64,000 bases of DNA from Denitrobaculum sp. GTDB taxonomy: Bacteria; Pseudomonadota; Alphaproteobacteria; Kiloniellales; Kiloniellaceae. The stretch is from NCBI GenBank assembly GCA_965232285.1, contig CBDDPL010000004.1, forward strand, positions 1,623,893 to 1,687,892, written 5' to 3'. Position numbers and translations under genes: made by a program. Under the pieces are notes generated by a model that had not been told where the DNA came from, searched no databases, and saw nothing but the letters and a program-made list of their open reading frames with translations. The first letter of the stretch is position 1. Each line of letters starts with the position of its first letter. This document shows, piece by piece, positions 5,486 to 20,219 of this stretch.

Positions 5486-6247
5486 ATGTCGGCCGAGTCA
5501 GATCTCAATTCCAGCGTCACCGCCTGCCTTCTCATCATCGGTAACGAGATACTCTCGGGCCGGACGAAAGACGCAAACCTCGCGTTCCTGGGCGAAAAGC
5601 TGAATGAAGCCGGCGTACGCCTGATGGAGGCGCGAGTCGTTCCGGATATCGAGGACGTCATCGTCGAAACTCTGAACGGGGTGCGCGGCCGCTTCGACTA
5701 CGTCTTCACGACCGGCGGCATCGGACCGACCCATGACGACATCACTTCGGCTTGCGTGGCCAAAGCCTTCGGCGTCGCCTGGAGCCTGCACCCCGAGGCC
5801 CATGCCTTGCTCAAGGCCCACTATGCGGAGGGCGAGCTCAACGAGGCACGCCTGCGCATGGCGCATACGCCCGAGGGCGCTTCTCTGATCGAAAATCCGA
5901 TCAGCAAGGCGCCGGGGTTTCAGATGGGCAACGTCTTCGTCATGGCGGGCATCCCCAAGGTCATGCAGGCGATGTTCGAAAGCCTCAAGCCGCGTCTGAC
6001 CGGCGGCGCCCCGGTGCGAAGCGTGACCCTGGCGGTTTCCCTTCCCGAGGGCGTCATTGCCGCGGGCCTTGGAGCGGCCCAGGAGCAGTATCCGGATGTG
6101 GAGATGGGCAGCTATCCCTATCGCACTGGTGACCGCTTCGGCGTGCGCCTTGTCTTGCGATCCGTCGATGTTGCGCGTCTTGAAGCGGCCGTCGAGAAGG
6201 TTTCGGCTCAGGTTCGCGAACTGGGGGACGAGCCCCGGCGCGAGTAG
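5486..6247 (+). CDS. molybdopterin-binding (CinA N-terminal / MoCF_biosynth type) domain protein
   Basis: LLIIGNEILSGRTKDANLAFLG and TTGGIGPTHDDIT motifs. Confidence 0.8.
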   Translation: MSAESDLNSSVTACLLIIGNEILSGRTKDANLAFLGEKLNEAGVRLMEARVVPDIEDVIVETLNGVRGRFDYVFTTGGIGPTHDDITSACVAKAFGVAWSLHPEAHALLKAHYAEGELNEARLRMAHTPEGASLIENPISKAPGFQMGNVFVMAGIPKVMQAMFESLKPRLTGGAPVRSVTLAVSLPEGVIAAGLGAAQEQYPDVEMGSYPYRTGDRFGVRLVLRSVDVARLEAAVEKVSAQVRELGDEPRRE

Positions 6248-6286
6248 CGGCCCGCCGGGATTACCTGCTCGACTTACCCGCCCGGC

Positions 6287-6646
6287 TTACTCAAAAATCG
6301 ACAGCTTCAGGGGCATCTGCGTGCCCAGCCAGATGGCATGGTCCCTGTGGTCCGCCAGATGATCGCCCGTCTCTGTATGGGTGAAGATGGTCAGGCCGTC
6401 CCGGTTGAGTGCGAGCCAGGGCAGGATCTCACCCAGAAGCTCAGCGCTGTAGGCGACCTGGTAGCTGCCGGTCGGATGAGGACCGATCGGGTTGTCGTGC
6501 CAGCGTCCCATCTCGACGGTAAAACGCGCCTCGATCGCTTCGCGTAAATCCGCGGCGCGCGCCTTCGAGCCGGCGTCGTAGTAGACGTGCGAGTGATAGC
6601 CCGTGATTGACGAAATGCTCTTAGTTTTCTGGTCGTTATCGTTCAT
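6287..6646 (-). CDS. DOPA 4,5-dioxygenase (DODA, COG3805) family protein
   Basis: 119 aa. YHSHVYYD ... GPHP pattern recalled from this small family; call from memory of family motifs only. Confidence 0.6.
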   Translation of the reverse strand: MNDNDQKTKSISSITGYHSHVYYDAGSKARAADLREAIEARFTVEMGRWHDNPIGPHPTGSYQVAYSAELLGEILPWLALNRDGLTIFTHTETGDHLADHRDHAIWLGTQMPLKLSIFE

Positions 6647-6723
6647 TTTTCAGTTGATTCCTTTGGGCGGATCCACCGGCCTTTAACCCCTTGGCAAGAT
6701 CCGGCGCGTAGGCTTGAGATGTT

Positions 6724-6986
6724 ATACCAAGGGTCGACAATATTGCACCGCAGGGACAGTTTTCTGAGGTTTTCGGCCAGGAACGCGGGGCGAAGCGATG
6801 CGGTGCATCGGAAGCCGCGCGTGACGCAGTCCGAAAGCCTCAGAAAACTGCCGTTCCGGTTGTCTACAGGGACCTTCGGAGGGCGTCGAAAAGCCTAACC
6901 GATGTGCCGCATCGCCTGCGGCTCTTCTCCTACCCGAAGGTCCCTGGAGACAATCCCTGCGGTGCAATATTGTCGACCCTTGGTAT
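6724..6986 (+). repeat. 263-bp structured element with perfect 33-bp terminal inverted repeats enclosing two ~20-bp hairpins (MITE/RIME-like element or structured ncRNA)
   Basis: 6724-6756 is the exact reverse complement of 6954-6986. Stem A is 6757-6776/6831-6850 (20 bp, one G-U). Stem B is 6861-6879/6934-6952 (19 bp, one A-G). The 54-nt loops carry 17-nt complementary segments 6795-6811/6899-6915. Intergenic between DODA and PilZ genes. Confidence 0.75.
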
Positions 6987-7062
6987 TGGCAAGGATTTTC
7001 CACCGGAAGTGACGTCACTCCGGGCAACAGCTTTCTATATAGATACGGCAGATCGCAGATTC

Positions 7063-7392
7063 ATGACCAGAAAGACCAATCTCGGGCAAAAGGACGAACG
7101 GCGGCGGTTTCCGCGTGTGAGCACGTCGCTGTCTGTGAACCTCCAGGTCGAAGATGGTGAGCGCGTCACCTGCAGGGTGCTGGATGCTTCGGTCAGCGGC
7201 GTGAAGGTGACGGGAGACAAGGCTTTGCCGATTGGTTCCGACGTCACCTTGATTATGCCCGGATCCGTCCACTTCGGCGGCCGGATTGTGCGGCATCAGG
7301 GTGATACCATGGGGATCGAGTTTGCGCTGGCGCCGGAACGGGTTGCTGAAATGATCACCGACCTTCTGCCAGGCCTGCAGGCCATGCGGTAA
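7063..7392 (+). CDS. PilZ domain protein
   Basis: RRFPRV...DASVSGVKV...G motif set (RxxxR and D/NxSxxG) of c-di-GMP-binding PilZ domains. Start moved to ATG 7063 so that the CDS does not cross the inverted-repeat element. Confidence 0.8.
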   Translation: MTRKTNLGQKDERRRFPRVSTSLSVNLQVEDGERVTCRVLDASVSGVKVTGDKALPIGSDVTLIMPGSVHFGGRIVRHQGDTMGIEFALAPERVAEMITDLLPGLQAMR

Positions 7393-7463
7393 AGCGGGCG
7401 CTCATCCTACAAACGCACGATGTTCCTGTACCCGATGTTCCTGCAAAGGCTTGAGTCGGAAAA

Positions 7464-7497
7464 CGGGAGCCTACCAGATGGCGGCTCCCGCTTTTTC
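7464..7497 (+). terminator. rho-independent terminator after PilZ gene
   Basis: 8-bp GC stem CGGGAGCC/GGCTCCCG (7464-7471 / 7483-7490) followed by CTTTTT. Confidence 0.55.
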
Positions 7498-7908
7498 GCT
7501 TCTTGTTCCCGAGGTAAAGCCGTGCCAGTGATTTGCACTTTCAACTCAGCTTAACTTCGAATTCCGAACCCGGCCTTGAGCCTGACGCGCAACTCAATGT
7601 TGCACTGAGTGAATTGGACGACAGTCCTCCAGGAGTCGCCGCACAGGCACTGCGGCGGCTATTTCGTCACCGGTTTTCCAGTAACGCAGGGCAGTATACT
7701 GCGCTTTTTCCGGCTTCTTTGTCAATATACTTAAGATTGTAGAGGTCGTTGTTTACAATTTTTGGTAACCATTTTGTCATATTTCCCCGCGCGGATTGAT
7801 TGAAGAGAGCGGATGAAAGGGCCTGTTCCGGCTGGGCGAAGAGGTGCTAAAAACACAACCACCAAGATAACACAGAGCAAAATCTGTCAGGATGTGGTAG
7901 GGTTAACC

Positions 7909-8175
7909 ATGCTGACCTTGAATGAACTCGCAATTCATAAAGCCCGGCTCCTGAGGGGCGAGGGCGAACACGATGAAGCCAGGATCGCGGAGCTGGACCG
8001 CCTGATTATCGGACAGCATGCGGTTAATCTCGATGACGCGATCATAAAGCTCGAACTGGCGCGCGAGATGGCGCATACGCTCGATCATTCGGTGGATCGC
8101 GATTACAGAGAAATCGAGGAACTCGCGGAAATCGTTACCCTCATCGACGATGTCCTGCGCGTCTTGCGGCATTAA
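7909..8175 (+). CDS. small hypothetical protein (88 aa, helical)
   Basis: ATG 7909 inside ORF 7813..8175. Charged helical sequence, no recognised family. Confidence 0.4.
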   Translation: MLTLNELAIHKARLLRGEGEHDEARIAELDRLIIGQHAVNLDDAIIKLELAREMAHTLDHSVDRDYREIEELAEIVTLIDDVLRVLRH

Positions 8176-8314
8176 GGCTCAGTTTTTCTTTTAAATCAGT
8201 GCTTTGAGCTCGTTTTCTGAAGCCGGGTCTGGCTTTCTCACCGACAGCTTTACACGCTACCGCGAAGCTTTCACCATGGGACGTTGCTGAAGGCCCCTGG
8301 AGGGAGTGTCCTGT

Positions 8315-9022
8315 ATGAAGCTGGTTATCTTCGATGTCGACGACACCCTGGTGCGCAGCGGTTCCTATGAAGACGCGCTGTTCTGGCAGGCACTCACGGA
8401 GGTGCTGGGACTGGAGCGGGAGGTTTTCGACTGGGCCAACTTTACCCACATCACGGACAGCGGCATCACACGAGAGGTCTATCGCCGACAGTTGGCGCGC
8501 GATCCAGACGCGGACGCGCTGGCTGCTACGGAGCGCCACTTCGCCGGCTTGTGGCGCGATGTCTTGTCCGATGTGTCGCAGGAAGACGCGGAGGTTCCCG
8601 GCGCGCGTGCGCTGATGAATAGCCTCCTGGAGCATCCGCAGTGGCAGGTTGCGTTGGCGACCGGCGCCTGGGGGCATCCCGCGCGGGAGAAGCTGGCAGC
8701 CGCGGAAATCCCGCACGGGGATTTCTCTCTGGGCTGCGCCAACGATGCCGTCGCAAGAGAGGACATCATTGCCATTGCCTGGAAGCGGGCGCTCAAAGCG
8801 GCTGCTATCGAGGAGTTCGAGCGTGTCGTCTATGTCGGAGACGGTGCCTGGGATGTGAAGACCTGCATCAATCTCGATCTTCCCCTGGTCGGCATGGCCG
8901 TGAGGGAAGAGACCCACGTGCGACTGCGGTCGCTCGGCGTCAGCCACATCCTGAGAGACTATAAGGACACCGTGGCGGTTCTCGACGCACTGGAGGCCGC
9001 CACGCCGCCCGCCGGCGCCTGA
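8315..9022 (+). CDS. HAD-superfamily hydrolase
   Basis: Motif I KLVIFDVDDTLV at the N-terminus and YVGDGAWD motif IV near the C-terminus. Confidence 0.8.
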   Translation: MKLVIFDVDDTLVRSGSYEDALFWQALTEVLGLEREVFDWANFTHITDSGITREVYRRQLARDPDADALAATERHFAGLWRDVLSDVSQEDAEVPGARALMNSLLEHPQWQVALATGAWGHPAREKLAAAEIPHGDFSLGCANDAVAREDIIAIAWKRALKAAAIEEFERVVYVGDGAWDVKTCINLDLPLVGMAVREETHVRLRSLGVSHILRDYKDTVAVLDALEAATPPAGA

Positions 9023-9429
9023 AAGCTTTCACGAGGCCGTGAGATCGGCGGTGAGTGAGCGCTCAAGCGCGCCAGTGACCTTGCATCGGTCTAGTTAAAG
9101 GCCATCTATGGCAAACGGATCAAAAGACTTCGATCGGTTTTCGCTACGGATCGCATAAGAATGACGAGCCCGGGCGAGCTTTCGATGGGTGAACGGTAAA
9201 TAGAACAGAGGGTCCGAGACAGAATTCGCTGATCAGCTTTATTAACTGTTCTGCGCTTTGTTTCGGGGATTATGGCATCCTTTCGGCGTAAAACCGGACA
9301 AAAGGTGCTTTGGGTCTTCGTCTTGCTGAACAGTTGGCAAGCGAGCGCCCGGTCTGCCGTCAGAATTTAATTCTGTTTGGGGCCCAGCGGTTCTTCGTTA
9401 CTCTTGCTCTTCGTCAACACAGAAAACCG

Positions 9430-9984
9430 ATGACTATTCAGTACGAAATGACCGAAGCCGATCACAACCCGGTGAAGGCGGGCTTACCCGACATCCTCTC
9501 CCGGCTCTGGCGCTTTGCCATGGTCTTGTCGCATAATGAAGAGACGGCCGGCGATCTGGTGCAGGCGACCTGCCTGCGCGCTTTGCAGCGCTGCGAACAG
9601 TTCAAGGCGGGAACGCATCTCGACCGCTGGACTTTTTCGATTATGGCCTCACTTTGGAAGAATGAGCTGCGCGCGGAACGGATCCGGCGCGGCGGCGGTT
9701 TCGTCGATGCGGAAGAGGTTCTGGTCACTGACGGCGCGGAAAAAATAGAAACGAATATTTTGCTAAGTCAGGTGTTGACTGAGATACAGGCCTTACCCGA
9801 AGCGCAGAGAAGTACCGTGTTGCTGGTTTACGTGGAGGGGATGACCTACGCCGAAGCGGCGGAAACCCTTGAAGTGCCGATTGGTACCATCATGAGCAGG
9901 CTGGCGGCGGCCAGGCTCAAACTGGCTGCACTGAAACGCGCGGCCGACGGTGGATCCAAGCGGCGGGTGAAGACAGGACAATGA
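9430..9984 (+). CDS. ECF-type RNA polymerase sigma-70 factor
   Basis: Region 2 (AGDLVQATCLRALQ...FKAG..LDRW) and region 4 (LPEAQRSTVLLVYVEGMTYAEAAETLEVPIGTIMSRL). Start moved to ATG 9430. Confidence 0.9.
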   Translation: MTIQYEMTEADHNPVKAGLPDILSRLWRFAMVLSHNEETAGDLVQATCLRALQRCEQFKAGTHLDRWTFSIMASLWKNELRAERIRRGGGFVDAEEVLVTDGAEKIETNILLSQVLTEIQALPEAQRSTVLLVYVEGMTYAEAAETLEVPIGTIMSRLAAARLKLAALKRAADGGSKRRVKTGQ

Positions 9985-10862
9985 CGAGCGAATTGCAAGA
10001 CGGGACCATAAGCGACGAGATCCTGGTCGCCTACCTGGACGGAGAACTGCCCGAGGGTGAGCGGTCGCGCGTGGAGACTGCCCTCGAACGGGAGGAGGAG
10101 CTCCGCGACCGCCTGGCGCTGCTGGACGACGGTGCGCGCCCTTGGAAAGACGCCTTTGCCGGCCTTGTAGATCAGGCGCCGCTTGAAAAGCTGGAAGCCG
10201 GTCTGGCGGAAGCGGTCCGGCAGCAGGAAACCGAGCTGGCCGATAAAGCTGTGGCCGATAAAGCTATGGCCGAGACGGGGGTGATCCTCGGCGAACCGGC
10301 AAACGATCATGTCGCGACGCGCTGGTGGCGCCCGGCAATGGCGGCCTGTGTCGCCATTACCCTGCTGATCGGTTTCGCCGCCGGCTACGGCACCAACGAG
10401 GCGCAGAAGACGCAGGTGGCGGAGGCTGCACCCAGCGAGGCCGAAATCTGGCGCCAGGCAGTTGCCGACTATCAGGCACTCTATACGCGCGAAACCCTTT
10501 CCATTGCGCCGACGGATCCGGCGATCCACGCAGCCGGCCTGCAGCGGGTCTCGAAATCGCTCGGATTGCCTCTCCCCGTGGCGGTGTCCGAGGTCGGCGG
10601 ACTGGACTACAAGCGCGCACAGATCCTTAAGTTCGGCACGCAGCCGCTCGCGCAGCTCGCCTATCTCTACAAGGATGAGATTCCGGTCGCCTTTTGTATC
10701 GTAAGGCTGGACGAAGTCGATCGTGCCGCGGGCAATGAGGTCCGCAGCGGCCTGAACATCGTTCATTGGGCAAAGGACGGCTACAGCCTGATGCTGGTTG
10801 GAGATCTGCCCGTCGAAGAACTGAATGATTTCGCCCGTGAACTCGAAGGGCGGATGATCTGA
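9981..10862 (+). CDS. anti-sigma factor (single-pass membrane)
   Basis: ATGA overlap with the sigma gene. N-terminal LVAYLDGELPEGERSRVE anti-sigma motif. One central TM helix (WWRPAMAACVAITLLIGFAAGY). Periplasmic C-terminal domain. Confidence 0.7.
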   Translation: MTSELQDGTISDEILVAYLDGELPEGERSRVETALEREEELRDRLALLDDGARPWKDAFAGLVDQAPLEKLEAGLAEAVRQQETELADKAVADKAMAETGVILGEPANDHVATRWWRPAMAACVAITLLIGFAAGYGTNEAQKTQVAEAAPSEAEIWRQAVADYQALYTRETLSIAPTDPAIHAAGLQRVSKSLGLPLPVAVSEVGGLDYKRAQILKFGTQPLAQLAYLYKDEIPVAFCIVRLDEVDRAAGNEVRSGLNIVHWAKDGYSLMLVGDLPVEELNDFARELEGRMI

Positions 10863-11165
10863 CTGACGGATAAGGCGGCGACGGCCCGGGAAGTTCGGGT
10901 TACCTCGACGCCGCGGAGGCCGTTAAGATCTGACACGCAAGAGTCCCCGCTTGGCCGCATCGAATGATTTACTTGCCTTGAGATGGCGAGGGCACCCTGC
11001 GCCCTGTCTGACGCAAGATGCTGCCCGACGCAAGGTGCCCTGACGCAAGATACCCTGGCACTGAACCGGCTTGTATCCCCTGACCGGGACAGGGAAACCT
11101 TGATCCCCATAGCCCTCAGACCTGCGCTTTACCGAGTCAGCGCCTGTCTGAGGGTCTGTTGGAGA

Positions 11166-13256
11166 TCAGGCGGCGCGCAACCGGTTCAGGAACTGCTCCA
11201 ACTCCCGCCTCAGGATGTCGGACTGACCGGTCAGTTTGCCGACCACCTCGACCACCTCGACGGATGCCTGGCTGGACTGCTGCGCGGCGGTATTCACCTC
11301 GATGATGTTGCTGGAAACATCCTGCGTGCCGGTCGCGGTCTGCTGGATGTTCTCAGCAATGTCCCGCGTTGCCGCGTTCTGCTCCTCGACCGCCGAAGCA
11401 ACCGCCGTGGTCATCTCGCTGATCTTCGACATGGCCGTAACGACCTCTTCGATCTCGCTCACAGTTTTCTGCGTCGAGTCCTGCATGGTGCCGATCTGCT
11501 GGGAGATCTCCTCAGTTGCCTTCGCCGTCTGATTGGCCAGCGATTTGACCTCGGAGGCCACCACGGCGAAGCCTTTGCCAGCCTCGCCGGCCCGTGCGGC
11601 CTCGATCGTGGCATTGAGCGCCAGCAGGTTGGTCTGTTCCGCGATGTCGTTGATCAGGCTCACCACATCGCCGATCTTCTGGGCGCCCTCGGCGAGGCCC
11701 TTGACCGTCTCATTGGTGGATTCCGCCTGTCCCTTGCCGTTCGCCGAAACATCGGCGGCGTCGGCCACCTGGCGGGCAATCTCCTGAATGGAGTTGGAAA
11801 GTTCCTCCGCTGCAGAGGCCACGGTCTGGGCCGTCACCGTCGCTTCCTCCGACGCGCTGGCCACGGCTGAAGCCCGCGAGGTGGTCTGCTCGGAAGCGGC
11901 AGACAGAGTCTGGGCCGTGACTTTCATTTCATCAGCGGCGCCGGCCACTTCCTCAACCACGCCTTTCACGCTGGCTTCAAGGTCGTCGGCCATCTGAAGG
12001 GTGGCCTGACGCTTCTCTTCCTCGGCCCGCTGTTCGGCGCGGGCCTGTTCTTCCCGAAGACGATCCGCCTCGATGGCGTTTTCCTTGAAGACCTGCACGG
12101 CCGCTGCCATCTCACCGATTTCGTCAGTCCGTCCCCGGGCGGGGACCTCGGTGGAGGTGTCGCCCTCGGCCAGCCGGCCCATGGCATCCGTCATCCTGAC
12201 GATAGGCCTGGAGATGGCGCGTCCGGTCAGGACGGCAAGGAGGACGCCGAAGAGAATGGCAGCCACGGCTGCCACCTTGACGACCGTCACGGCAACCGCC
12301 ATCGCCTCGGTCGCCCGGGGACCCAGTTCGTCCTGCGCAGCCTTGTTGGAAAGTTTGATCTGTTCCATCTCGCCGGCAAGCTTGGGCCCGATCACGTCCA
12401 GAGAATCCCGGATGATGCCGTTGCGTTTGAAGATGACCTCGACGACCTCGCCGAAGGCAGATTTATAACCGCCCGCCAGTTCGACCAGTGTGCCTGCCAA
12501 CTGCCGGCGCTCCGGGTTCTGCAGTTGAGCCAGCATCTCCGTGGCGGAGGTCTCGAAATCCCTTAGCTCCTGGTTCGATCGATCGGCGCTGGACTGCTGG
12601 TTGTCGACCAGGAACCGGTTCGAATAGAGCCGTGCCAGCAGGAGATGGCGCAGGGTGATCCCCGCCCGATAGGCGCTTGTCGCGTCGTCATCTTCATAGG
12701 CGCTGGTCATGATCTTGGTTAAGGCTCGCTCTGACTTTGGCCCGATGGTGTTGAGTTGTGCCACCAGTTGGTTGCGCCGCCCGACGAGTTCGGTGACCTC
12801 TTCGAACGATGAGCGGTAGGTCGCGATCTGCTCAATGGCAGATTGGATAATCGTGAGATTCTCGCTGTCCTGGAACAGTTCCTCGGCACCCTGCGTGATT
12901 TCCTCGGTGGTCTGTGCCCGCTGACGGACCATCTCAGCCGCGTGATCGGAGTTTTTGAGGATGTAGTCCTTCACACCGAGGCGTGCCGATAGGAGGTTAG
13001 CCTGGATGCGGCCCAGTTGATTGGTCTGCCGTGCCAGCAGGCGATAGTCGCCGAACTGATCATTCGCACCCGAGAGCCCGAAATAGGCGACGCCGCAGAC
13101 AATCGACAAGAAGAGGAGCACGGCAAGGAAACCCAAACCGATCTTCTTGCCGACCTTCAGGTTTGTAAATGGGTTGCCGCGCAAGCGAGCAGGGCTCTGA
13201 GGGTCGTTGCTTTCGCCGGACAGATCCGACGCAGTGTCGACAATACTACCAGACAT
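11166..13256 (-). CDS. methyl-accepting chemotaxis protein
   Basis: Two TM helices flank a periplasmic sensor, then a HAMP region and the conserved signalling hairpin ([40 protein letters not shown]). ATG 13256 has a better RBS than TTG 13295. Confidence 0.9.
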
Positions 13257-13337
13257 AATTCTGTACCCCTTTTTTGGAAGTTGATTCGATTTCAAGCGTG
13301 TACTTTCGATGGACGCGTTGAATTCGCCGTTGGGGTG

Positions 13338-13489
13338 TAAAAATCAATTAAAATTCTAAACAATTAAATAAAAATACACTTGAAATATGTTTAAATAAAT
13401 AAAAATGAATATTATATTACTATATTCTGCATTTTAAGTAATAATTCTTTACCATAATTTATTTGTAAGATAAAAATTTATATTATATC
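13338..13489. other. extreme AT-rich tract (~150 bp, >85 % A+T by eye) upstream of the MCP gene
   Basis: Run of AAAATCAATTAAAATTCTAAACAATTAAATAAAAATA... in an otherwise 60-65 % GC context. Confidence 0.8.
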
Positions 13490-14170
13490 GCGTGGGTCAG
13501 TTAAGGTGGGTAAGGGAGGTTTTTAAAAACAATCGGAAATTGATGCATGTGCGGACTGATTACGCTTAAAATCGGCCAAAAATACTCTCTAAAAGAGAAA
13601 TTTACACATTAATTTCAGTATTAAGTAAGTGCTACCTGTGTGCTGAACGCTGCATGCGGGATCCGCTGATCTAGGCTAAAATGCCTATTTTTCTTGGTTA
13701 TTTGCTCAAAAACAGCCAATCAGCGCAGAAAATTGCGGCCGCGGAGGGGAGGTCGCTGTCTCTCGATTGGCTGGTGTTTTGCAATGCCTGATTGTTTGGG
13801 ATGATCGATCCGGGAAGGAATTTTGTGCCTGAAGCATTTTTTGGCTTTGTTCAATCAAAGAGTGTATTGAAAATTCTGACCCTCAGGCTGCGCGCACGGA
13901 CCTGGCTTTGCTGAATTGCCGCAGGGGTATATTCAGGGTGGGGTGTCACAGATCCGCGCCAAGAGCCTGAGGTTTGAACGGGCCTTGCGTTTGCCCTCTG
14001 CCGTTGGGTTGCCGCTGGTACGATGCCTGGCAGACCTTGAGGTGAAGCTTCCAGCAGTCTGCTTGCGGGGAGAGCCTTGAGCCGTCGCAGCTTGAAGCCC
14101 GATGTGACTGCCGGGACCGGACGTTTCACATCGGACAGGGAGCCGGCCGTCGTCGTAACACGGCAAAGAG

Positions 14171-14227
14171 TGGTGCCCGCTCCCGGACTCGAACCGGGAC
14201 GGCCTTACGGCCTCAAGATTTTAAGTC
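14171..14227 (-). repeat. 57-bp direct repeat = 3' portion of tRNA-Leu(TAA) (att-type island boundary)
   Basis: TGGTGCCCGCTCCCGGACTCGAACCGGGACGGCCTTACGGCCTCAAGATTTTAAGTC is identical to 20133-20189. Similarity stops inside the anticodon arm. Confidence 0.9.
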
Positions 14228-15076: not shown

Positions 15077-16033
15077 TCAGGCGATGCCGGCCGCGTGGCC
15101 CCGCCTGATTTGATCGTCGGAATACGGCTGTTGCCCGTTCTCGTGCTTGATGATCGCTTTGATCATGCTGGGCCCTATTGCCCGTTCGCCGAAATCGAAT
15201 GTCTGACCGGCGCCGATGCCCATGGCGCGGCTGACCGCTTCGACGTAAGCCGCGGTTGGGTTTTCGGATGGCGGTGCCCAGCGGCTGATCATGCCGCGCA
15301 CCGTCCGTAGGCCATGTTTGCTCTGGTAGTTGCGCAGCACCCGGGCGAGCGCGCGCAGGCCCCAATGCGGCTCTTGGAAAACGCAAAACCTGTTTTCTCG
15401 CTTCTGGAACGGGGTCATTTGGTCGGACGTGGCTAAGCCCTGCCAGTCGTCGCCCTGTTCAATGTTGCCCGGATTGTGGTTGCGAATCCCTCGAGGCATC
15501 CGCTCGGTCACTTCGACGAAGGCGTCGCCCGGCGTCACCGCGCCTGCCAGCATTCCGGCGGTCAGCTCCTGATGGCCGCCGTAACATGCGACCTCGACCG
15601 CGAGACCGATATCGTCGCCCAGGTTGAAGTTCGGCGGCCGAACCAGACCAGTATGATTCCGATCCAGATAGTGGGCCAGTTCGTGCACGAACTTTGCCTC
15701 GCACAGGGTGCGCCATTTCAGGTTCTGTGGGTCGTCCGAAACCCTTTCGGCGATGTTCCGGTTGATCTCAATTCGGCGCGGATGGCGCGGATCGAATTGG
15801 GCGTAGATCATGAACTGCCCAAGCGGACCCAGATCGGTGAACGTGACGACAGGGTCTTGCGTGTTGTTCTCTAAGGCCGCTTGCACCGTGGCGTCTTGCA
15901 GCGGCATGCAACGGCCGAGTCCCTCCTGGACGCTCTGAAACTCAGGTTTGCTGAGGTTCTCGTTGAAGCCCTGAAGCGCGGCAACCGCGCCGGCAAATTC
16001 GGGGCTCACAGCCTTAAAAGGATCAATTCTCAT
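15077..16033 (-). CDS. HExxH metallopeptidase-like domain fused to a phage 'structural protein P5'-like cell-wall domain
   Basis: Start moved to ATG 16033; the upstream 132 codons of ORF 15077..16429 are R-rich. FVHELAHYL zinc motif. C-terminal RNHNPGNI...WQG...FCVF...WGLRALARVLRNY...TVRGMISRWAPPSENP block recalled from phage/prophage proteins. Confidence 0.7.
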   Translation of the reverse strand: MRIDPFKAVSPEFAGAVAALQGFNENLSKPEFQSVQEGLGRCMPLQDATVQAALENNTQDPVVTFTDLGPLGQFMIYAQFDPRHPRRIEINRNIAERVSDDPQNLKWRTLCEAKFVHELAHYLDRNHTGLVRPPNFNLGDDIGLAVEVACYGGHQELTAGMLAGAVTPGDAFVEVTERMPRGIRNHNPGNIEQGDDWQGLATSDQMTPFQKRENRFCVFQEPHWGLRALARVLRNYQSKHGLRTVRGMISRWAPPSENPTAAYVEAVSRAMGIGAGQTFDFGERAIGPSMIKAIIKHENGQQPYSDDQIRRGHAAGIA

Positions 16034-16152
16034 TCTTTTCAGCCCCCGTGCCTTAGCTATAGAACGAAAACCTTGCCTCGGTTGAAGCCAATGTGCAAGC
16101 ATAGCAGGAATATAAGAATGAAATAGCACGTTAAGGTGGGGAGGGCGCTTCG

Positions 16153-17736
16153 ATGCTAAGACTGGGGGAGTCCATCGGGGCTGGTATCGGCGGGCGCAGA
16201 CTGCGTTTGACCTGCGGTGCTTTTGGAATCTTGGTGCTCGGTGCGTGCTCCGGCCCAGTTGGTCTGAGCGTCGCCGACATCGAAGACAGCGAGAGCGCCA
16301 AATTCGCTGAACCGCCCTCCATCGCCAAGGCGCTGGCTTATGCCGACGCGGTCCGCTCGACGTACCGGTCGCGTATTTCCAACCAGATGTTGTTGCGTCA
16401 GGGTGTCGGGTTGGGCTCGATCGCCGCACTGGCTGGTTTGGGATTCATCGCCACGCGTGGCGGCTCGGCCGACCTAGCCTACGGCCTCGGCTCCGGAGTC
16501 GCGGGCGGCCTCGCGGCGACCCAACTGTTCACCAGCAACCGCGAACAATTTCTCTACGCCGCCGGTGCGGTGACCATCGGCTGCGCAATGAGCGCCGTTG
16601 CGCCCTTGCAGTCGGCCTCGGTGGCGCGGGATACCCTGAGGCGCGGTATCCTCGACCAACCCCTGATCAACGATATCAACGCGGTCGAGGGTATGATCGA
16701 GGCCATGAGTCAGGCGGGCGCCGAGTCGACCAACCTGGCGCGCAGCCGGGCCGCGGTCGCCAAGGCGCGCGAAGCCGTGGTGCGCGGCACTTCGGCCTTG
16801 CTGCGCCTCGATGGCGCGGGCGCCGACTTGGTCCGCGTCGTCGACGAGGTGCAGGACAAGATCACCACGGAAGTGATCGCGAACCAAGTCGATCTGGCTG
16901 CCTTCATTGGGTCGCTCGGCGCGACATTCGCGGTCCAGGTTCCGACGCCGAAGACGGCCGCCCCAGCGGCGGCGCCCGGGCTGATAGAAACTTCGCAGGC
17001 CGGTGCTCTAGAACTGGAAGCCGCGACCAAAGAACTGATCCGCAGAACCAGCGCGCTCGAAGCGGCGGCCGATTTCATCGAGGCCGCTGGCGCGTCGGTG
17101 TCGTTGACCGATTGTACCTTCGATCCGGATGCGGTGGGTGGAGGTTTCAGGCTCGACCCGTCCACGCCGCAGACCGTCGATGCCACCGCGCGCGACCAGA
17201 CCGTGAATTTCGCGCTGTCCGGTGGCCGACCGCCTTATCGCTTCAATTGGCTGGGCACCGCGCCGCCGGCCACGGTTGAGCCCGACTTGGAAACCGGGGC
17301 CGGCGACCTGGCGATTACCGTGCCCAAGGATACGCCATCGGGGACCTACGCTTTCCGGGTCGGCGACGTTGCATCGGCGGTCGCGTTTTCGCAGCTCGTC
17401 ATTCAGGGGCCGTCCGCCGCACCGCAGGCGCGGCTCCAAAACGGCGGTGCCACCGATTCCTGTGCTACGGATCCAAAAGGCATTGGCGAGGTCCAGAAAA
17501 CCTTGCGCGACGATTTCCGAAGCCAGGGCATGCGGGTGGATGTCACGACCGAGCGCGACGGGCAGACGGTCACCGAAAGCAAGGAAATTGGCGTCGATTG
17601 CAAGATGGGCCCCGTGACGCGCGCTGCTTTACAGGAGGCGTTGCGCAAAATCGGCACCACCCCAGCCGACGTGGCGGCGATGGACGACGACGCGTTGCTC
17701 GCGAAATACAAGGAACTCAAAGGTTTGGGTTCATAG
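16153..17736 (+). CDS. lipoprotein with glycine-zipper segment, Ig-like region and peptidoglycan-binding-like C-terminus
   Basis: GGAGGG RBS before ATG 16153. Lipobox LGAC. GxxxG-rich stretch GVGLGSIAALAGLGF...GLGSGVAGGLAA. C-terminal MGPVTRAALQEAL resembles the PG_binding_1 motif. Confidence 0.7.
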   Translation: MLRLGESIGAGIGGRRLRLTCGAFGILVLGACSGPVGLSVADIEDSESAKFAEPPSIAKALAYADAVRSTYRSRISNQMLLRQGVGLGSIAALAGLGFIATRGGSADLAYGLGSGVAGGLAATQLFTSNREQFLYAAGAVTIGCAMSAVAPLQSASVARDTLRRGILDQPLINDINAVEGMIEAMSQAGAESTNLARSRAAVAKAREAVVRGTSALLRLDGAGADLVRVVDEVQDKITTEVIANQVDLAAFIGSLGATFAVQVPTPKTAAPAAAPGLIETSQAGALELEAATKELIRRTSALEAAADFIEAAGASVSLTDCTFDPDAVGGGFRLDPSTPQTVDATARDQTVNFALSGGRPPYRFNWLGTAPPATVEPDLETGAGDLAITVPKDTPSGTYAFRVGDVASAVAFSQLVIQGPSAAPQARLQNGGATDSCATDPKGIGEVQKTLRDDFRSQGMRVDVTTERDGQTVTESKEIGVDCKMGPVTRAALQEALRKIGTTPADVAAMDDDALLAKYKELKGLGS

Positions 17737-17751
17737 CCGGAGGCGAGACCG

Positions 17752-19050
17752 ATGAATCAGCCGGCGCCCTGGGTGGTTTTCTTGGGTTTGGTCGTGCTGC
17801 CGTTTCTTGCCGGTTTTTGGCTGCCGGAGCAGGACGGTAATCTCGACAATGGCCGGATCGCCGCCTTCGCTTTGAGTTTCGCTAGTCTGCTCCTCGCGTT
17901 GGGGTTATGGGGACGGTCCTTGCGATCTGACGTGCTCGGCGTGCTGGTCGACGAGCGCAACCGCATCTCGCTCTCGCGGTTCCAGATCGTGCTCTGGACG
18001 CTCATTCTGCTGCCAGGTCTCAGCACTGCCTTGTTGGTCAACCTGGCGCGGTTTCTGCTCGCGCCCGATCAGCTCGACGGTTTGGCCGCCGAAGAACCGC
18101 TGAGCGGCGGTCCGCTCGATATCGTCATCGACTGGACGTTGGTACAGCTCGCTGCGATCAGCGTCGGGTCGCTCGTGGTTGCCCCGATGGCGCTGCGAGT
18201 CAAGGCGCAACAGCCCGCTGACGAGGCGCCGCTGGGCGTCACTGTCGCGGCCGGTATCGCCGCGCGCGACGCGCTGGAGAAGGTGTCGCTGTCGGATCTG
18301 TTTTTCGGTGAAGAGAATGCCAACAAGAACAGTCTCGACATCACCAGACTGCAAATGCTGGTACTGACCCTGATCCTATGGTCGGCCTATCTGGTGCTTT
18401 TGATCGGGGTGCTGAAGGACCCGGCTGAGCGGTTCATTGCGAGCTTTCCGGAATTCGACCAAACGACGCTTGCGCTCTTGCTGGCCAGCCACTCCGGCTA
18501 TCTCGCCGGCAAGGTGGCGCCGCGGCTCAATACGCCACGACCGTCGGCCGTCGCCCAGGCGCAGCTATTGCGGGTTCAACGGCAACTCGACGAGACCGCG
18601 GCGTGCTTGGCGGTGCTGCTTTCCGGCTCGCGCTCGACGACCGCCTTCGATGCCGAGGCCAGGCGGATATCGGCCCTGGTCGAGAGCATGACCAACGAAG
18701 TGGTCGATCTGCAGATCAAGCTTGCCGCGGGCGAAAACGTGCTCGATACCGTGACAGCCATTCGCGCGCGCGCCGATGTGGTTCGTGAAAACGTCGCGGC
18801 TTTGACCCAGCGCGTTGACCCTGACGATGTCGACGAGGCGGACGAATCACTGGTTCAGGAAGTACGCGATCTGATCCGCGCCCACAGCGACAGCGCGCAA
18901 CTGGGCACCGGACGGTGGTCGGCTGGCGACGACTTGGAGCTGGAAAGCGTGCTTAAATCCGAGCAACCTGATTTCACTCTGGACGATCTTCATCCGATCC
19001 AGTACCGGCGCCTCGAGGAGGCACGCGAACTGCTCGAAACACTATCCTAA
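17752..19050 (+). CDS. polytopic membrane protein with C-terminal coiled-coil cytoplasmic domain
   Basis: GGAGG RBS, 15 nt after the preceding stop codon. About six hydrophobic helices in the first 250 aa, then about 180 aa of heptad-like acidic helical sequence. No family recognised. Confidence 0.7.
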   Translation: MNQPAPWVVFLGLVVLPFLAGFWLPEQDGNLDNGRIAAFALSFASLLLALGLWGRSLRSDVLGVLVDERNRISLSRFQIVLWTLILLPGLSTALLVNLARFLLAPDQLDGLAAEEPLSGGPLDIVIDWTLVQLAAISVGSLVVAPMALRVKAQQPADEAPLGVTVAAGIAARDALEKVSLSDLFFGEENANKNSLDITRLQMLVLTLILWSAYLVLLIGVLKDPAERFIASFPEFDQTTLALLLASHSGYLAGKVAPRLNTPRPSAVAQAQLLRVQRQLDETAACLAVLLSGSRSTTAFDAEARRISALVESMTNEVVDLQIKLAAGENVLDTVTAIRARADVVRENVAALTQRVDPDDVDEADESLVQEVRDLIRAHSDSAQLGTGRWSAGDDLELESVLKSEQPDFTLDDLHPIQYRRLEEARELLETLS

Positions 19051-19373
19051 ATGTCCTGCCGCGACCGACATACCGATTCGATCACCGACCCTCGGGCGCG
19101 TAGATCGCGTGCCCGAGTCGCCGCCGCGGTATACAGCTCGTTGACCTGCACGTCGCCGACCTCGCGTGGGATGAAGAGGGTTTCCTGGTGAGTCTGGACA
19201 TCGGTGCCGCACATCACGTCGACCATCGGCGCGATCAGATTGAAGGTGATCGCCGGACGATTCTGTTCTTCGAGATAGGCTAGGTCGCCCTGCAGCCACT
19301 GGTCGCCGGCGACGAAGGCGTAGCTTTCCTTGGCCTTGACATGCCAGTCGGCCCAAAAGTCGCGGGCTTCCTG
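19047..19373 (-). pseudogene. phage portal protein N-terminal fragment (no start codon, truncated)
   Basis: Open frame between stop codons translates to QEARDFWADWHVKAKESYAFVAGDQWLQGDLAYLEEQNRPAITFNLIAPMVDVMCG... This matches the GDQW...L..EGRP..TFN.I.P.VD..G pattern remembered from portal proteins. Only about 100 codons are present. Confidence 0.4.
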
Positions 19374-19385
19374 TTACTACTGACG

Positions 19386-19700
19386 TCACTCCATCAGCTC
19401 GTCGATGGGCTCGAGGGGTACGCGGTCGTCGGCGGCCGCGCTAGCGGCTGCTGCTGTGTCGGCCGGGCGTTTCGCGCTATCCAGGCGTGTTGGCGCGTGC
19501 GGCTGGCGGCAGGTAATAGCGAATGGTGAGTGCGGGGGCGCAGAACCGCAAAGCTGTATCCGAGTGCTCTGGGCCTTGGTCAAACCCAGCTTGCAGGTGT
19601 TCTCTCGCTGGCTTTCATAGGCGAGACCAAAGCATACCCGGCATCCAACGCGCCCACTCAGATAGAGTTTGGCGCAGCGCTTGCAACAGTTCGGGCACAA
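19386..19700 (-). CDS. small zinc-ribbon protein, phage-associated type
   Basis: CPNCCKRCAKLYLSGRVGCRVCFGLAYESQRE: two CxxC pairs in the arrangement common in alphaproteobacterial prophage ORFs. Confidence 0.4.
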   Translation of the reverse strand: MCPNCCKRCAKLYLSGRVGCRVCFGLAYESQRENTCKLGLTKAQSTRIQLCGSAPPHSPFAITCRQPHAPTRLDSAKRPADTAAAASAAADDRVPLEPIDELME

Positions 19701-20132
19701 GAACCAGACACGCTCCCCGCCATAATTGCAGTGTGTCTACTCGAGCGGTGCAGTGGCGCGCACGTCGCATTTGGGTCACGATCTGCCAATTCCACCCCCT
19801 CGGCGGCTTGCCCGAAGCTGAGGCGAAGCGGACACAAACCGCTAGAAAGCCGGCATAGCCGACAGAATGTCACTTGTCGCGGGAAGGGCGGACGCGGCTT
19901 GGGGCGACCGGAATTTCGCTTAAGTGCTAGAATCGGAAGAACCTCCCCTTTTGGGCGGAGAAAAAAAGAGGAGCAAGTCACAAGTAACTACTTATGAGAC
20001 ATTAGCGGGTGTGACCACCTGAAGCTCGCCTATGTGGACCGCTTGGCCAGTGCCCGAGATCAGGTCTTCGAACCGCCAAAACTACCTGGCCGTTCAAGGT
20101 GTGAGCGCGACTTCAACGCTCCAACAATGAAA

Positions 20133-20219
20133 TGGTGCCCGCTCCCGGACTCGAACCGGGACGGCCTTACGGCCTCAAGATTTTAAGTCTTGTATGTCTA
20201 CCAATTCCATCAAGCGGGC
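20133..20219 (-). tRNA. tRNA-Leu (anticodon TAA)
   Basis: Reverse complement GCCCGCTTGATGGAATTGGTAGACATACAAGACTTAAAATCTTGAGGCCGTAAGGCCGTCCCGGTTCGAGTCCGGGAGCGGGCACCA folds as a cloverleaf. 7-bp acceptor stem, anticodon loop CTTAAAA, long variable arm, TTCGAGT T-loop, encoded CCA. Confidence 0.92.

Follow-up and report, generated by a model that had tools for sequence, protein, structure and literature searches.

Several bacterial envelope systems pair a multi-helix inner-membrane protein with a peptidoglycan-anchored partner, as in Zorya ZorAB, MotAB and Tol-Pal, and in Zorya such anchoring can serve phage sensing. Type 10 secretion systems are derived from phage lysis cassettes (PMC4259817, PMC10847048). 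Among phage enzymes, the Enc34 domain has been found muralytic by experiment and is argued to be an N-acetylglucosaminidase (PMC8943055), with Trp79, Tyr95 and Glu131 proposed as its catalytic residues (PMC8943055, PMC9502842), and P5 of the corticovirus PM2 is a homologue of this enzyme (PMC9502842). Another domain, the zincin Tox-MPTase3, has a published signature consisting of K, HExxH and F[DE] (PMC3482391). Here we describe a module of three genes, termed A, B and C, where a divergent Tox-MPTase3 zincin and an Enc34/P5-type domain are joined in the protein predicted from gene A, beside two genes for large envelope proteins. It was found in a window of 64,000 nucleotides (nt), meaning the whole stretch of DNA analysed, from the alphaproteobacterium Denitrobaculum sp. 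(GenBank assembly GCA_965232285.1, contig CBDDPL010000004.1, positions 1,623,893 to 1,687,892 of the forward strand); coordinates below are those of the window. In the literature, neither the fused hydrolase nor the three-gene module was found described.

Gene A (15077-16033, minus strand) encodes 318 amino acids (aa) from an ATG, gene B (16153-17736, plus strand) encodes 527 aa and gene C (17752-19050, plus strand) encodes 432 aa, all three being intact open reading frames (ORFs). A and B diverge from an intergenic region of 119 nt with the presumed promoters (16034-16152), while B and C are separated by a gap of 15 nt and each is preceded by a GGAGG-type ribosome-binding site. An earlier sequence-only reading of this DNA had given the same coordinates, lengths, divergent layout and B-C gap with strong ribosome-binding sites, all of which agree with our analysis.

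That reading had also taken the three genes for a genuine module, and the three families do co-occur elsewhere. Loci were scored with profiles built here for B, for C and separately for each half of A. In total, 13 loci from alpha- and gammaproteobacteria and from metagenomes encode a long form of C, and A, B and C are found together wherever the contig allows this to be checked. All three genes are adjacent in 11 of them: the window, a locus from a public run (L001), Pelagibius marinus (L003; L006 is the same locus), an 820-kb metagenome contig (L004), L005, a Rhodospirillaceae metagenome-assembled genome (L007), Dongia (L008), a Pseudomonadota metagenome-assembled genome (L012), the gammaproteobacterium Dokdonella (L013) and metagenomes (L028 and L030). 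L029 holds C and A at a contig end, and the contig of L027, with its long C, is too short to judge. The gene order varies, being divergent, with A facing away from B-C, in the window, L001, L003, L004, L005, L007 and L008, and colinear in the order B-C-A with gaps of 0-20 nt in L012, L013, L028, L029 and L030; linkage that is kept through such rearrangement is strong evidence for a functional unit. The C-terminal extension that makes the long C occurs only where A and B adjoin, and none of about 60 loci with a short C has A or B beside it. Furthermore, the pairwise identities of A, B and C across 10 loci (21-55%) correlate with each other (r 0.77-0.87, Mantel p ~5e-4), which indicates that the three genes have moved together for a long time. 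A search of 185,579 species genomes with two short peptide patterns, giving a lower bound, located the full module in at least 5 genomes. A, B and C form one conserved unit.

The product of A is a candidate bifunctional peptidoglycan hydrolase with two putative catalytic domains, a zincin peptidase and a glycosidase. It shows no signal peptide and no hydrophobic segment, and its full-length relatives (310-384 aa) have the same two domains. The N-terminal domain (residues 1-172; 15518-16033, minus strand) is a divergent Tox-MPTase3 zincin in which K114, the H117-E118-x-x-H121 motif (HELAH, nt 15671-15685) and E147 are conserved, with H117, E118, H121, G143 and E147 forming the invariant columns of the zincin alignment. 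The A protein of the window itself reaches 11.9 bits against the Tox-MPTase3 model PF15639, below the Pfam cut-off of 25, whereas among 12 full-length relatives in the alignment 10 score above it, the best with E 2.5e-21; the homology of the window protein is thus transitive, as the relatives match the model and the alignment with them is 36-41% identical. The published signature of K, HExxH and F[DE] fits A, with the window reading A-V-E where most relatives read A-F-E. The sequence-only reading had likened the HExxH region to ImmA/IrrE, an assignment that we rejected because Peptidase_M78 matches neither A (E<=1) nor its 12 relatives (E<=0.01), and Tox-MPTase3 takes its place. A longer version of A, 450 aa from a GTG start, was rejected as well, since its Arg-rich extension overlaps B on the opposite strand and has no counterpart in the homologues, all of which begin where the ATG lies.

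The C-terminal domain of A (residues 177-315; 15089-15505, minus strand) belongs to the PHA02564 / Enc34-ORF39 / PM2-P5 type of lysozyme-fold glycosidases. It matches PDB entry 7q47 with E 2e-20 as a single sequence and 1.5e-32 as a family profile, and the endolysin family phrog_873 with E 4.7e-55, together with further PHROG families of endolysins, tape-measure proteins and injection transglycosylases. The signature RGIRNHNPGNI...RWAPPSENP...HENG is present; the sequence-only reading had linked it to proteins annotated as structural protein P5, and it proved to be that of the PM2 P5 / Enc34 endolysin domain (7q47; PMC9502842). W252, Y263 and E298 (the last at nt 15140-15142) align to W79, Y95 and E131 of Enc34, with the chain index of 7q47 shifted by one in our alignment, and the three residues are invariant in the 12 full-length relatives. 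The triad is thus intact, and the domain is expected to be a glycosidase, probably an N-acetylglucosaminidase. When A was compared with 50,697 phage genomes, only residues 141-309 found matches, in endolysins of Mu-like Pseudomonas phages and others, and no record covered >=80% of the protein, so the fused architecture was not seen in phages. As predicted from these homologies, A joins two known domains in a new architecture.

B is predicted to be a periplasmic lipoprotein with a peptidoglycan-binding-type end. It begins with a signal peptide and a lipobox (VLGAC, Cys32, nt 16246-16248; ALSGC in L001), and in an alignment of 54 B relatives the lipobox cysteine is nearly invariant while C144 and C321 never vary, in keeping with an oxidising periplasm. 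An exhaustive search returned 280 representatives at E<=1e-3 and 110 at E<=1e-10; a word-indexed search found B itself alone. The confident AlphaFold (AF2) model of B (pLDDT 83.3, pTM 0.60) resolves into a bundle of long helices of up to 52 residues each, the glycine-rich ones among them (residues 57-313; 16321-17091), an Ig-like sandwich (residues 333-418; 17149-17406) and an alpha/beta end resembling PG_binding_1 (residues 444-523; 17482-17721), all on the plus strand, and the homologues (467-623 aa) share this three-domain organisation. In Foldseek searches of PDB and BFVD, the model matched Ig domains only, so that the Ig-like part gained structural relatives and the helical bundle none. 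The peptidoglycan-binding model PF01471 is matched by 11 of the 54 family members (best E 7.6e-7) and not by the B of the window, and the family profile shows weak matches, in the same columns, to the peptidoglycan-binding domains of 7rum, 4xxt, 4lpq, 1lbu and SltB3. At the level of the family, these results uphold the lipoprotein, the Ig-like region and the peptidoglycan-binding-like C-terminus that had been seen in B at first sight. The glycine-rich helices were also considered as membrane spans, a possibility rejected on their insertion energies of +4.4 to +5.7. In the 820-kb metagenome contig (L004, 6278-7845, minus strand), B is split into two overlapping ORFs of 340 aa and 182 aa, the split falling between the helical and the Ig-like parts; this represents either a frameshift or a natural two-protein version.

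Neither B nor C belongs to a described family. No Pfam, NCBIfam, PADLOC or PHROG family rises above noise for either protein, just as the sequence-only reading had recognised none. No solved structure is a sequence match to either, and profile searches of PDB sequences with B, C and the C tail gave coiled-coil noise and weak matches to peptidoglycan-binding domains only. The same reading had held that the module would lose its case if the two large proteins were ordinary prophage structural or tail proteins; tblastn found no match for either in the 50,697 phage genomes, and C has no relative in 2.9 million viral contigs.

C consists of a transmembrane (TM) domain (residues 1-257; 17752-18522) with the motifs DERNRISLSRFQ..LW, LSDLF.GEE.N..LD..R.QML and SH.GYLAGK, a predicted helical stalk (residues 258-360; 18523-18831) and a degenerate PG_binding_1-like end (residues 361-432; 18832-19047), all on the plus strand. 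In the membrane domain, S73, L74, Q78, W82, Q201, S246, Y250 and K254 are invariant among 43 diverse members. Five segments of C are clearly hydrophobic and one is weak. For the weak segment, counted as TM6, the Hessa scale gives an insertion energy of +7.0 (family median +5.4, no member below +2), against medians of -0.6 to +2.6 for the other five. A positive-inside analysis of 70 members showed that Lys and Arg are abundant in loops 2 and 4 and not in loops 1, 3 and 5, which places loops 2 and 4 on the cytoplasmic side. The tail of 177 aa is acidic (33 D+E versus 19 K+R) and helical, and its last ~75 residues follow the pattern V..VQ..L...GY.V..TG..D..T..AI..L...G in most long C proteins. 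PF01471 is matched by 3 of the 43 members (best E 8.8e-4), with the window copy degenerate; hhalign pairs the tail with the C-terminal domain of B at a probability of 96.6% (E 7e-10), and a profile search of PDB with the tail gave nothing significant (7rum, E 0.74). Because the loop charges, the energy of the sixth segment and the homology to the B end agree, C probably spans the inner membrane five times, with its N-terminus inside, its C-terminus outside and a periplasmic helical stalk that ends in a peptidoglycan-binding-type domain. The sequence-only reading had described a six-TM protein with an acidic cytoplasmic coiled coil of about 180 aa; the acidic helical tail stands, but its cytoplasmic location and the sixth span are not supported, as the tail end is homologous to the peptidoglycan-binding end of B and the sixth segment makes a poor membrane helix.

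The C family comprises two forms, the long one of ~400-480 aa with the C-terminal 170 residues and a short one of ~280-330 aa that ends after the membrane domain. Short forms stand alone in Pseudomonas, Ktedonobacteria, Acidobacteria, Desulfovibrionaceae, Caulobacter and others; they were recorded in Pseudomonas (L002, L009-L011, L014 and L016), in Ktedonobacteria (L015, L018 and L019) and at many metagenome loci. The short form has no Pfam model and keeps the S, Q, W, Q, S, Y and K positions invariant; in several Pseudomonas species it is syntenic and core-like. Conserved neighbourhoods of the short form were found within Pseudomonas only and offered no functional clue.

We tentatively read A, B and C as a self-contained, horizontally moved envelope-breaching module that follows the logic of a lysis cassette and is used in conflict, a reading for which we claim somewhat less than an even chance. 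A would be a wall-degrading enzyme applied under the control of two wall-anchored partners. C would cross the inner membrane five times and project its helical stalk to the wall, B would reach the wall from the outer membrane, and the two would thus bracket the peptidoglycan layer. The cytoplasm may keep A from doing harm until C lets it across through its membrane domain or until the membrane is breached, after which B and C could position or hold it on the wall. One protein per envelope layer would reproduce the logic of a holin-endolysin-spanin cassette or of a type 10 secretion system with unrelated and larger parts. The use might be suicidal early lysis upon phage attack, or the release of A or of cell contents against competitors, and a conflict role appears most likely because the module is sporadic and lies in mobile or defence-type neighbourhoods. 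For the specific case of abortive infection, which would make the module an anti-phage system of a new kind, B and C would sense peptidoglycan or envelope damage caused by the phage and release stored A, so that the cell lyses before phage progeny mature; we regard this version by itself as unlikely.

The combination of an unexported hydrolase and a lipoprotein also calls to mind an interbacterial toxin with its immunity protein, where A is delivered to the periplasm of competitors by an unlinked secretion system such as type VI and B, perhaps with C, provides periplasmic immunity. Wall-degrading type VI effectors typically lack a signal peptide, and their immunity proteins are periplasmic and often lipoproteins. 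A without a signal peptide and B with its lipobox conform to this scheme, as do the tight linkage, the correlated divergence and the sporadic occurrence of the module on islands, and Tox-MPTase3 was defined as a polymorphic-toxin domain (PMC3482391). The zincin of A, however, is not a C-terminal toxin tip, as it forms the N-terminal part of a 318-aa protein that has no N-terminal trafficking domain or targeting motif. The flanks of the examined loci hold no VgrG, Hcp, PAAR, Rhs, adaptor or other delivery gene, with whole genomes lying outside this search. The three-domain B and the polytopic C are unlike the known small, single-domain immunity proteins, and the scheme has no role for a C extension that is strictly tied to A and B. 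We therefore consider a toxin-immunity set, the main rival to our reading, doubtful, with roughly one chance in several.

The window copy of the module lies on an island of 5.96 kb flanked on both sides by a perfect 57-nt direct repeat of the 3' end of a tRNA gene. The tRNA-Leu(TAA) itself (20133-20219, minus strand; ARAGORN, Rfam 57.1 bits) supplies the proximal repeat with its 3' 57 nt (20133-20189), and the distal att-like copy at 14171-14227 marks the other boundary; the pair is what an integrase leaves behind when it inserts a segment, here one of about 5.96 kb. The integrase itself is gone from the island, and the 850 nt left of A and the 1.08 kb on the right-hand side of C lack long credible ORFs. 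Directly next to the end of C lies a truncated portal gene of the P22 type (19050-19373, minus strand), a stop-free frame for the first ~85 residues of the protein (PF16510 E 6e-17; phrog_156 E 3e-14) with tblastn matches to annotated portal genes of Rhizobium and Paracoccus phages. Its homology breaks off <70 nt away from where C ends, which indicates that the portal gene was truncated by the module or by a deletion. Given this fragment, the island is a prophage remnant with A, B and C as its only intact genes, and the tRNA-Leu island with an otherwise decayed mobile element, noticed in the sequence-only reading, is confirmed by the repeat and the portal fragment.

In public DNA runs, the island has the same depth as its flanks, and no excision joints were found. 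Rfam matched the tRNA alone in the region, and a plasmid search gave no DNA match to the island. In a stop-free frame of 116 aa at 19389-19736 (minus strand), a motif resembling a zinc ribbon is seen (CPNCC...CRVC...LAYESQRE); the frame matches nothing in Pfam, PHROG or phages and is perhaps a further remnant gene of the island. Just outside, a non-coding stretch at 13296-14170 separates the distal att repeat from a chemoreceptor gene (11166-13295, minus strand). Its GC is very low (~38-45% versus 60% for the window), and it might serve regulation or be what an older insertion left behind.

Such surroundings raise the question of a prophage origin, in which the genes would be a moron for superinfection exclusion, or leftover lysis or entry genes of a P22-like prophage that have not yet decayed. 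The module does abut the portal fragment within a tRNA-bounded island, and the glycosidase domain of A often occurs in endolysins and ejection proteins of phages. Classic exclusion factors include lipoproteins and membrane proteins, the classes of B and C. Yet the phage genomes searched contain no relatives of B or C and the viral contigs none of C, fused A is not found in phages, and the flanks examined at the other module loci are free of phage genes. The three ORFs have all stayed intact among loci at 21-55% pairwise identity, which speaks for selection rather than slow decay. A wall hydrolase, moreover, has no obvious place in an exclusion mechanism. We accordingly give this explanation little credence, the least of those considered here.

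The neighbourhoods of the module differ from locus to locus. Against the decayed prophage at a tRNA in the window, where only the three genes have escaped destruction, the neighbours in Pelagibius marinus (L003) are a methylase and a DUF4365 protein resembling Argonaute-associated nucleases, those at L005 a Trypco2 gene, a gene for a 1,131-aa protein and Tn7-like TniB/TniQ, and those at L012 a caspase and a PP2C. In Dongia (L008), an HNH protein matching the candidate defence model PDC-M68A is found beside a tRNA-Ser, and in Dokdonella (L013) the neighbours are a DUF5675 protein and an HNH protein. This pattern is the one seen for accessory conflict genes; it is compatible with a conflict role and proves nothing. 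At L005, the Trypco2-domain gene and the 1,131-aa protein with TPR-like repeats lie directly downstream of the A homologue and are followed by TniQ/TniB (6038-9754, plus strand; 9843-14003, minus strand), which looks like a separate conflict system on a transposon. The DUF5675 gene of Dokdonella (L013, 7378-7809, plus strand) comes after the A homologue and was not seen at the other loci.

At two loci, L004 and L007, the neighbours are housekeeping genes, which would suit an accessory system for remodelling or tethering of the wall, where B and C are scaffolds that control a dedicated hydrolase in growth, division or stress and play no role in conflict. FtsEX-EnvC and Tol-Pal follow a logic comparable to such wall-anchored scaffolds. 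In favour of this view, both B and C have peptidoglycan-binding-type ends and long periplasmic helices, A, B and C do not differ from host genes in third-position GC content (GC3, 0.74-0.77), and a short stand-alone C is core-like in some Pseudomonas. A has no export signal, however, unlike regulated housekeeping hydrolases, and its zincin domain comes from a toxin family. Nor would one expect of such a system the patchy distribution described above or a copy inside a tRNA-bounded prophage remnant. On balance, a wall-remodelling role seems rather improbable to us.

Little could be learned about expression. The A-B intergenic region has no sigma-70 consensus match, no motif is conserved across the divergent intergenic regions of six loci, and terminator-like sites are no more numerous than in shuffled sequence. 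The sole transcript-like signal is one 236-nt contig at 16106-16312, from a run guessed to be RNA, which covers the ribosome-binding site of B together with the beginning of the gene. The runs with the same species label are poly-A libraries of the eukaryote type, which suggests that this label was given to a eukaryotic host or to a sample of mixed content.

Several of these results, and some others, weigh against the envelope-breaching reading. Those poly-A libraries gave zero reads on the region. PADLOC-DB 2.0, which includes Zor models, has no match to A, B or C at E<=1; no further gene is conserved beside the module across loci, be it cargo, sensor or regulator; and the housekeeping neighbours at L004 and L007 do not point to conflict. 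The peptidoglycan-binding motif is degenerate in the B and C of the window itself, the topology of the C tail is built on remote homology and a simple hydrophobicity scale, and the AlphaFold model of C, made from 6 sequences, is poor (pLDDT 50.9). As for the parts of a lysis cassette, holins are small, with 1-4 TM segments and usually <150 aa, whereas C has 432 aa, ~5 TM segments and conserved polar motifs; given the poor model and this lack of likeness, a gating role of C is purely conjectural. B in turn is ~10 times larger than an o-spanin and consists of a helical bundle, an Ig-like part and a peptidoglycan-binding end.

B, with its 280 representative clusters, and the long C are unannotated families that appear as obligate partners of a toxin-type wall hydrolase, and the whole is a concrete and small cassette of 4 kb. 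For Tox-MPTase3, an uncharacterised toxin domain, A points to the cell wall as the class of substrate. Should the module serve controlled lysis or defence, it would constitute a bacterial envelope-breaching system without detectable homology to phage holins and spanins, in which peptidoglycan anchoring is put to new use as a means of control. If it should be a toxin-immunity set instead, the immunity architecture would still be unusual.

Compared with the known systems, the module resembles each of them in part. From Zorya, MotAB and Tol-Pal it differs in that no sequence similarity was found (the Zor models of PADLOC being unmatched), no ion-channel motifs were recognised, and the putative effector is a wall hydrolase and not a nuclease. 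It shares with the type VI pairs Tae/Tai and Tge/Tgi a wall hydrolase without a signal peptide beside the gene of a periplasmic lipoprotein, on variable islands, but differs from them by the lack of linked delivery genes, by its large multidomain envelope partners and by the polytopic C as an obligatory third member. The zincin belongs to the same, mainly alphaproteobacterial family as Tox-MPTase3 (PF15639; Zhang et al. 2012, PMC3482391) and keeps K, HExxH and the downstream acid; in polymorphic toxins this domain is the C-terminal tip behind RHS, PVC or other trafficking regions, whereas in A it forms the N-terminal half and is fused to a glycosidase. The glycosidase in turn is a clear homologue of Enc34 ORF39 and PM2 P5 (PHA02564; PDB 7q47) with the Trp/Tyr/Glu triad kept. 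Those phage enzymes have transmembrane anchors or are virion proteins, while A is chromosomal, has no anchor, and comes with an N-terminal zincin and two partner genes.

A likeness in organisation is also seen to lysis cassettes and type 10 secretion systems. In these, an i-spanin, with its N-terminus inside and a periplasmic coiled coil, and a small o-spanin lipoprotein bind by their C-termini. C is an inner-membrane protein with a probable periplasmic helical part, B is a predicted outer-membrane-type lipoprotein, and their C-terminal domains are homologous to each other, but in size and sequence the two are unlike spanins, and C is unlike any i-spanin. With lysis cassettes and the type 10 systems of Serratia (ChiWXYZ, PMC4259817) and Yersinia entomophaga (PMC10847048), the module has in common a separate component for each envelope layer, a muralytic enzyme that lacks a signal peptide, as predicted for A, and the tight clustering of its genes. 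It departs from them by having no phage homologues of B or C and no linked cargo genes, and also by a predicted two-enzyme fusion in A and by peptidoglycan-binding-type domains in both of its partners.

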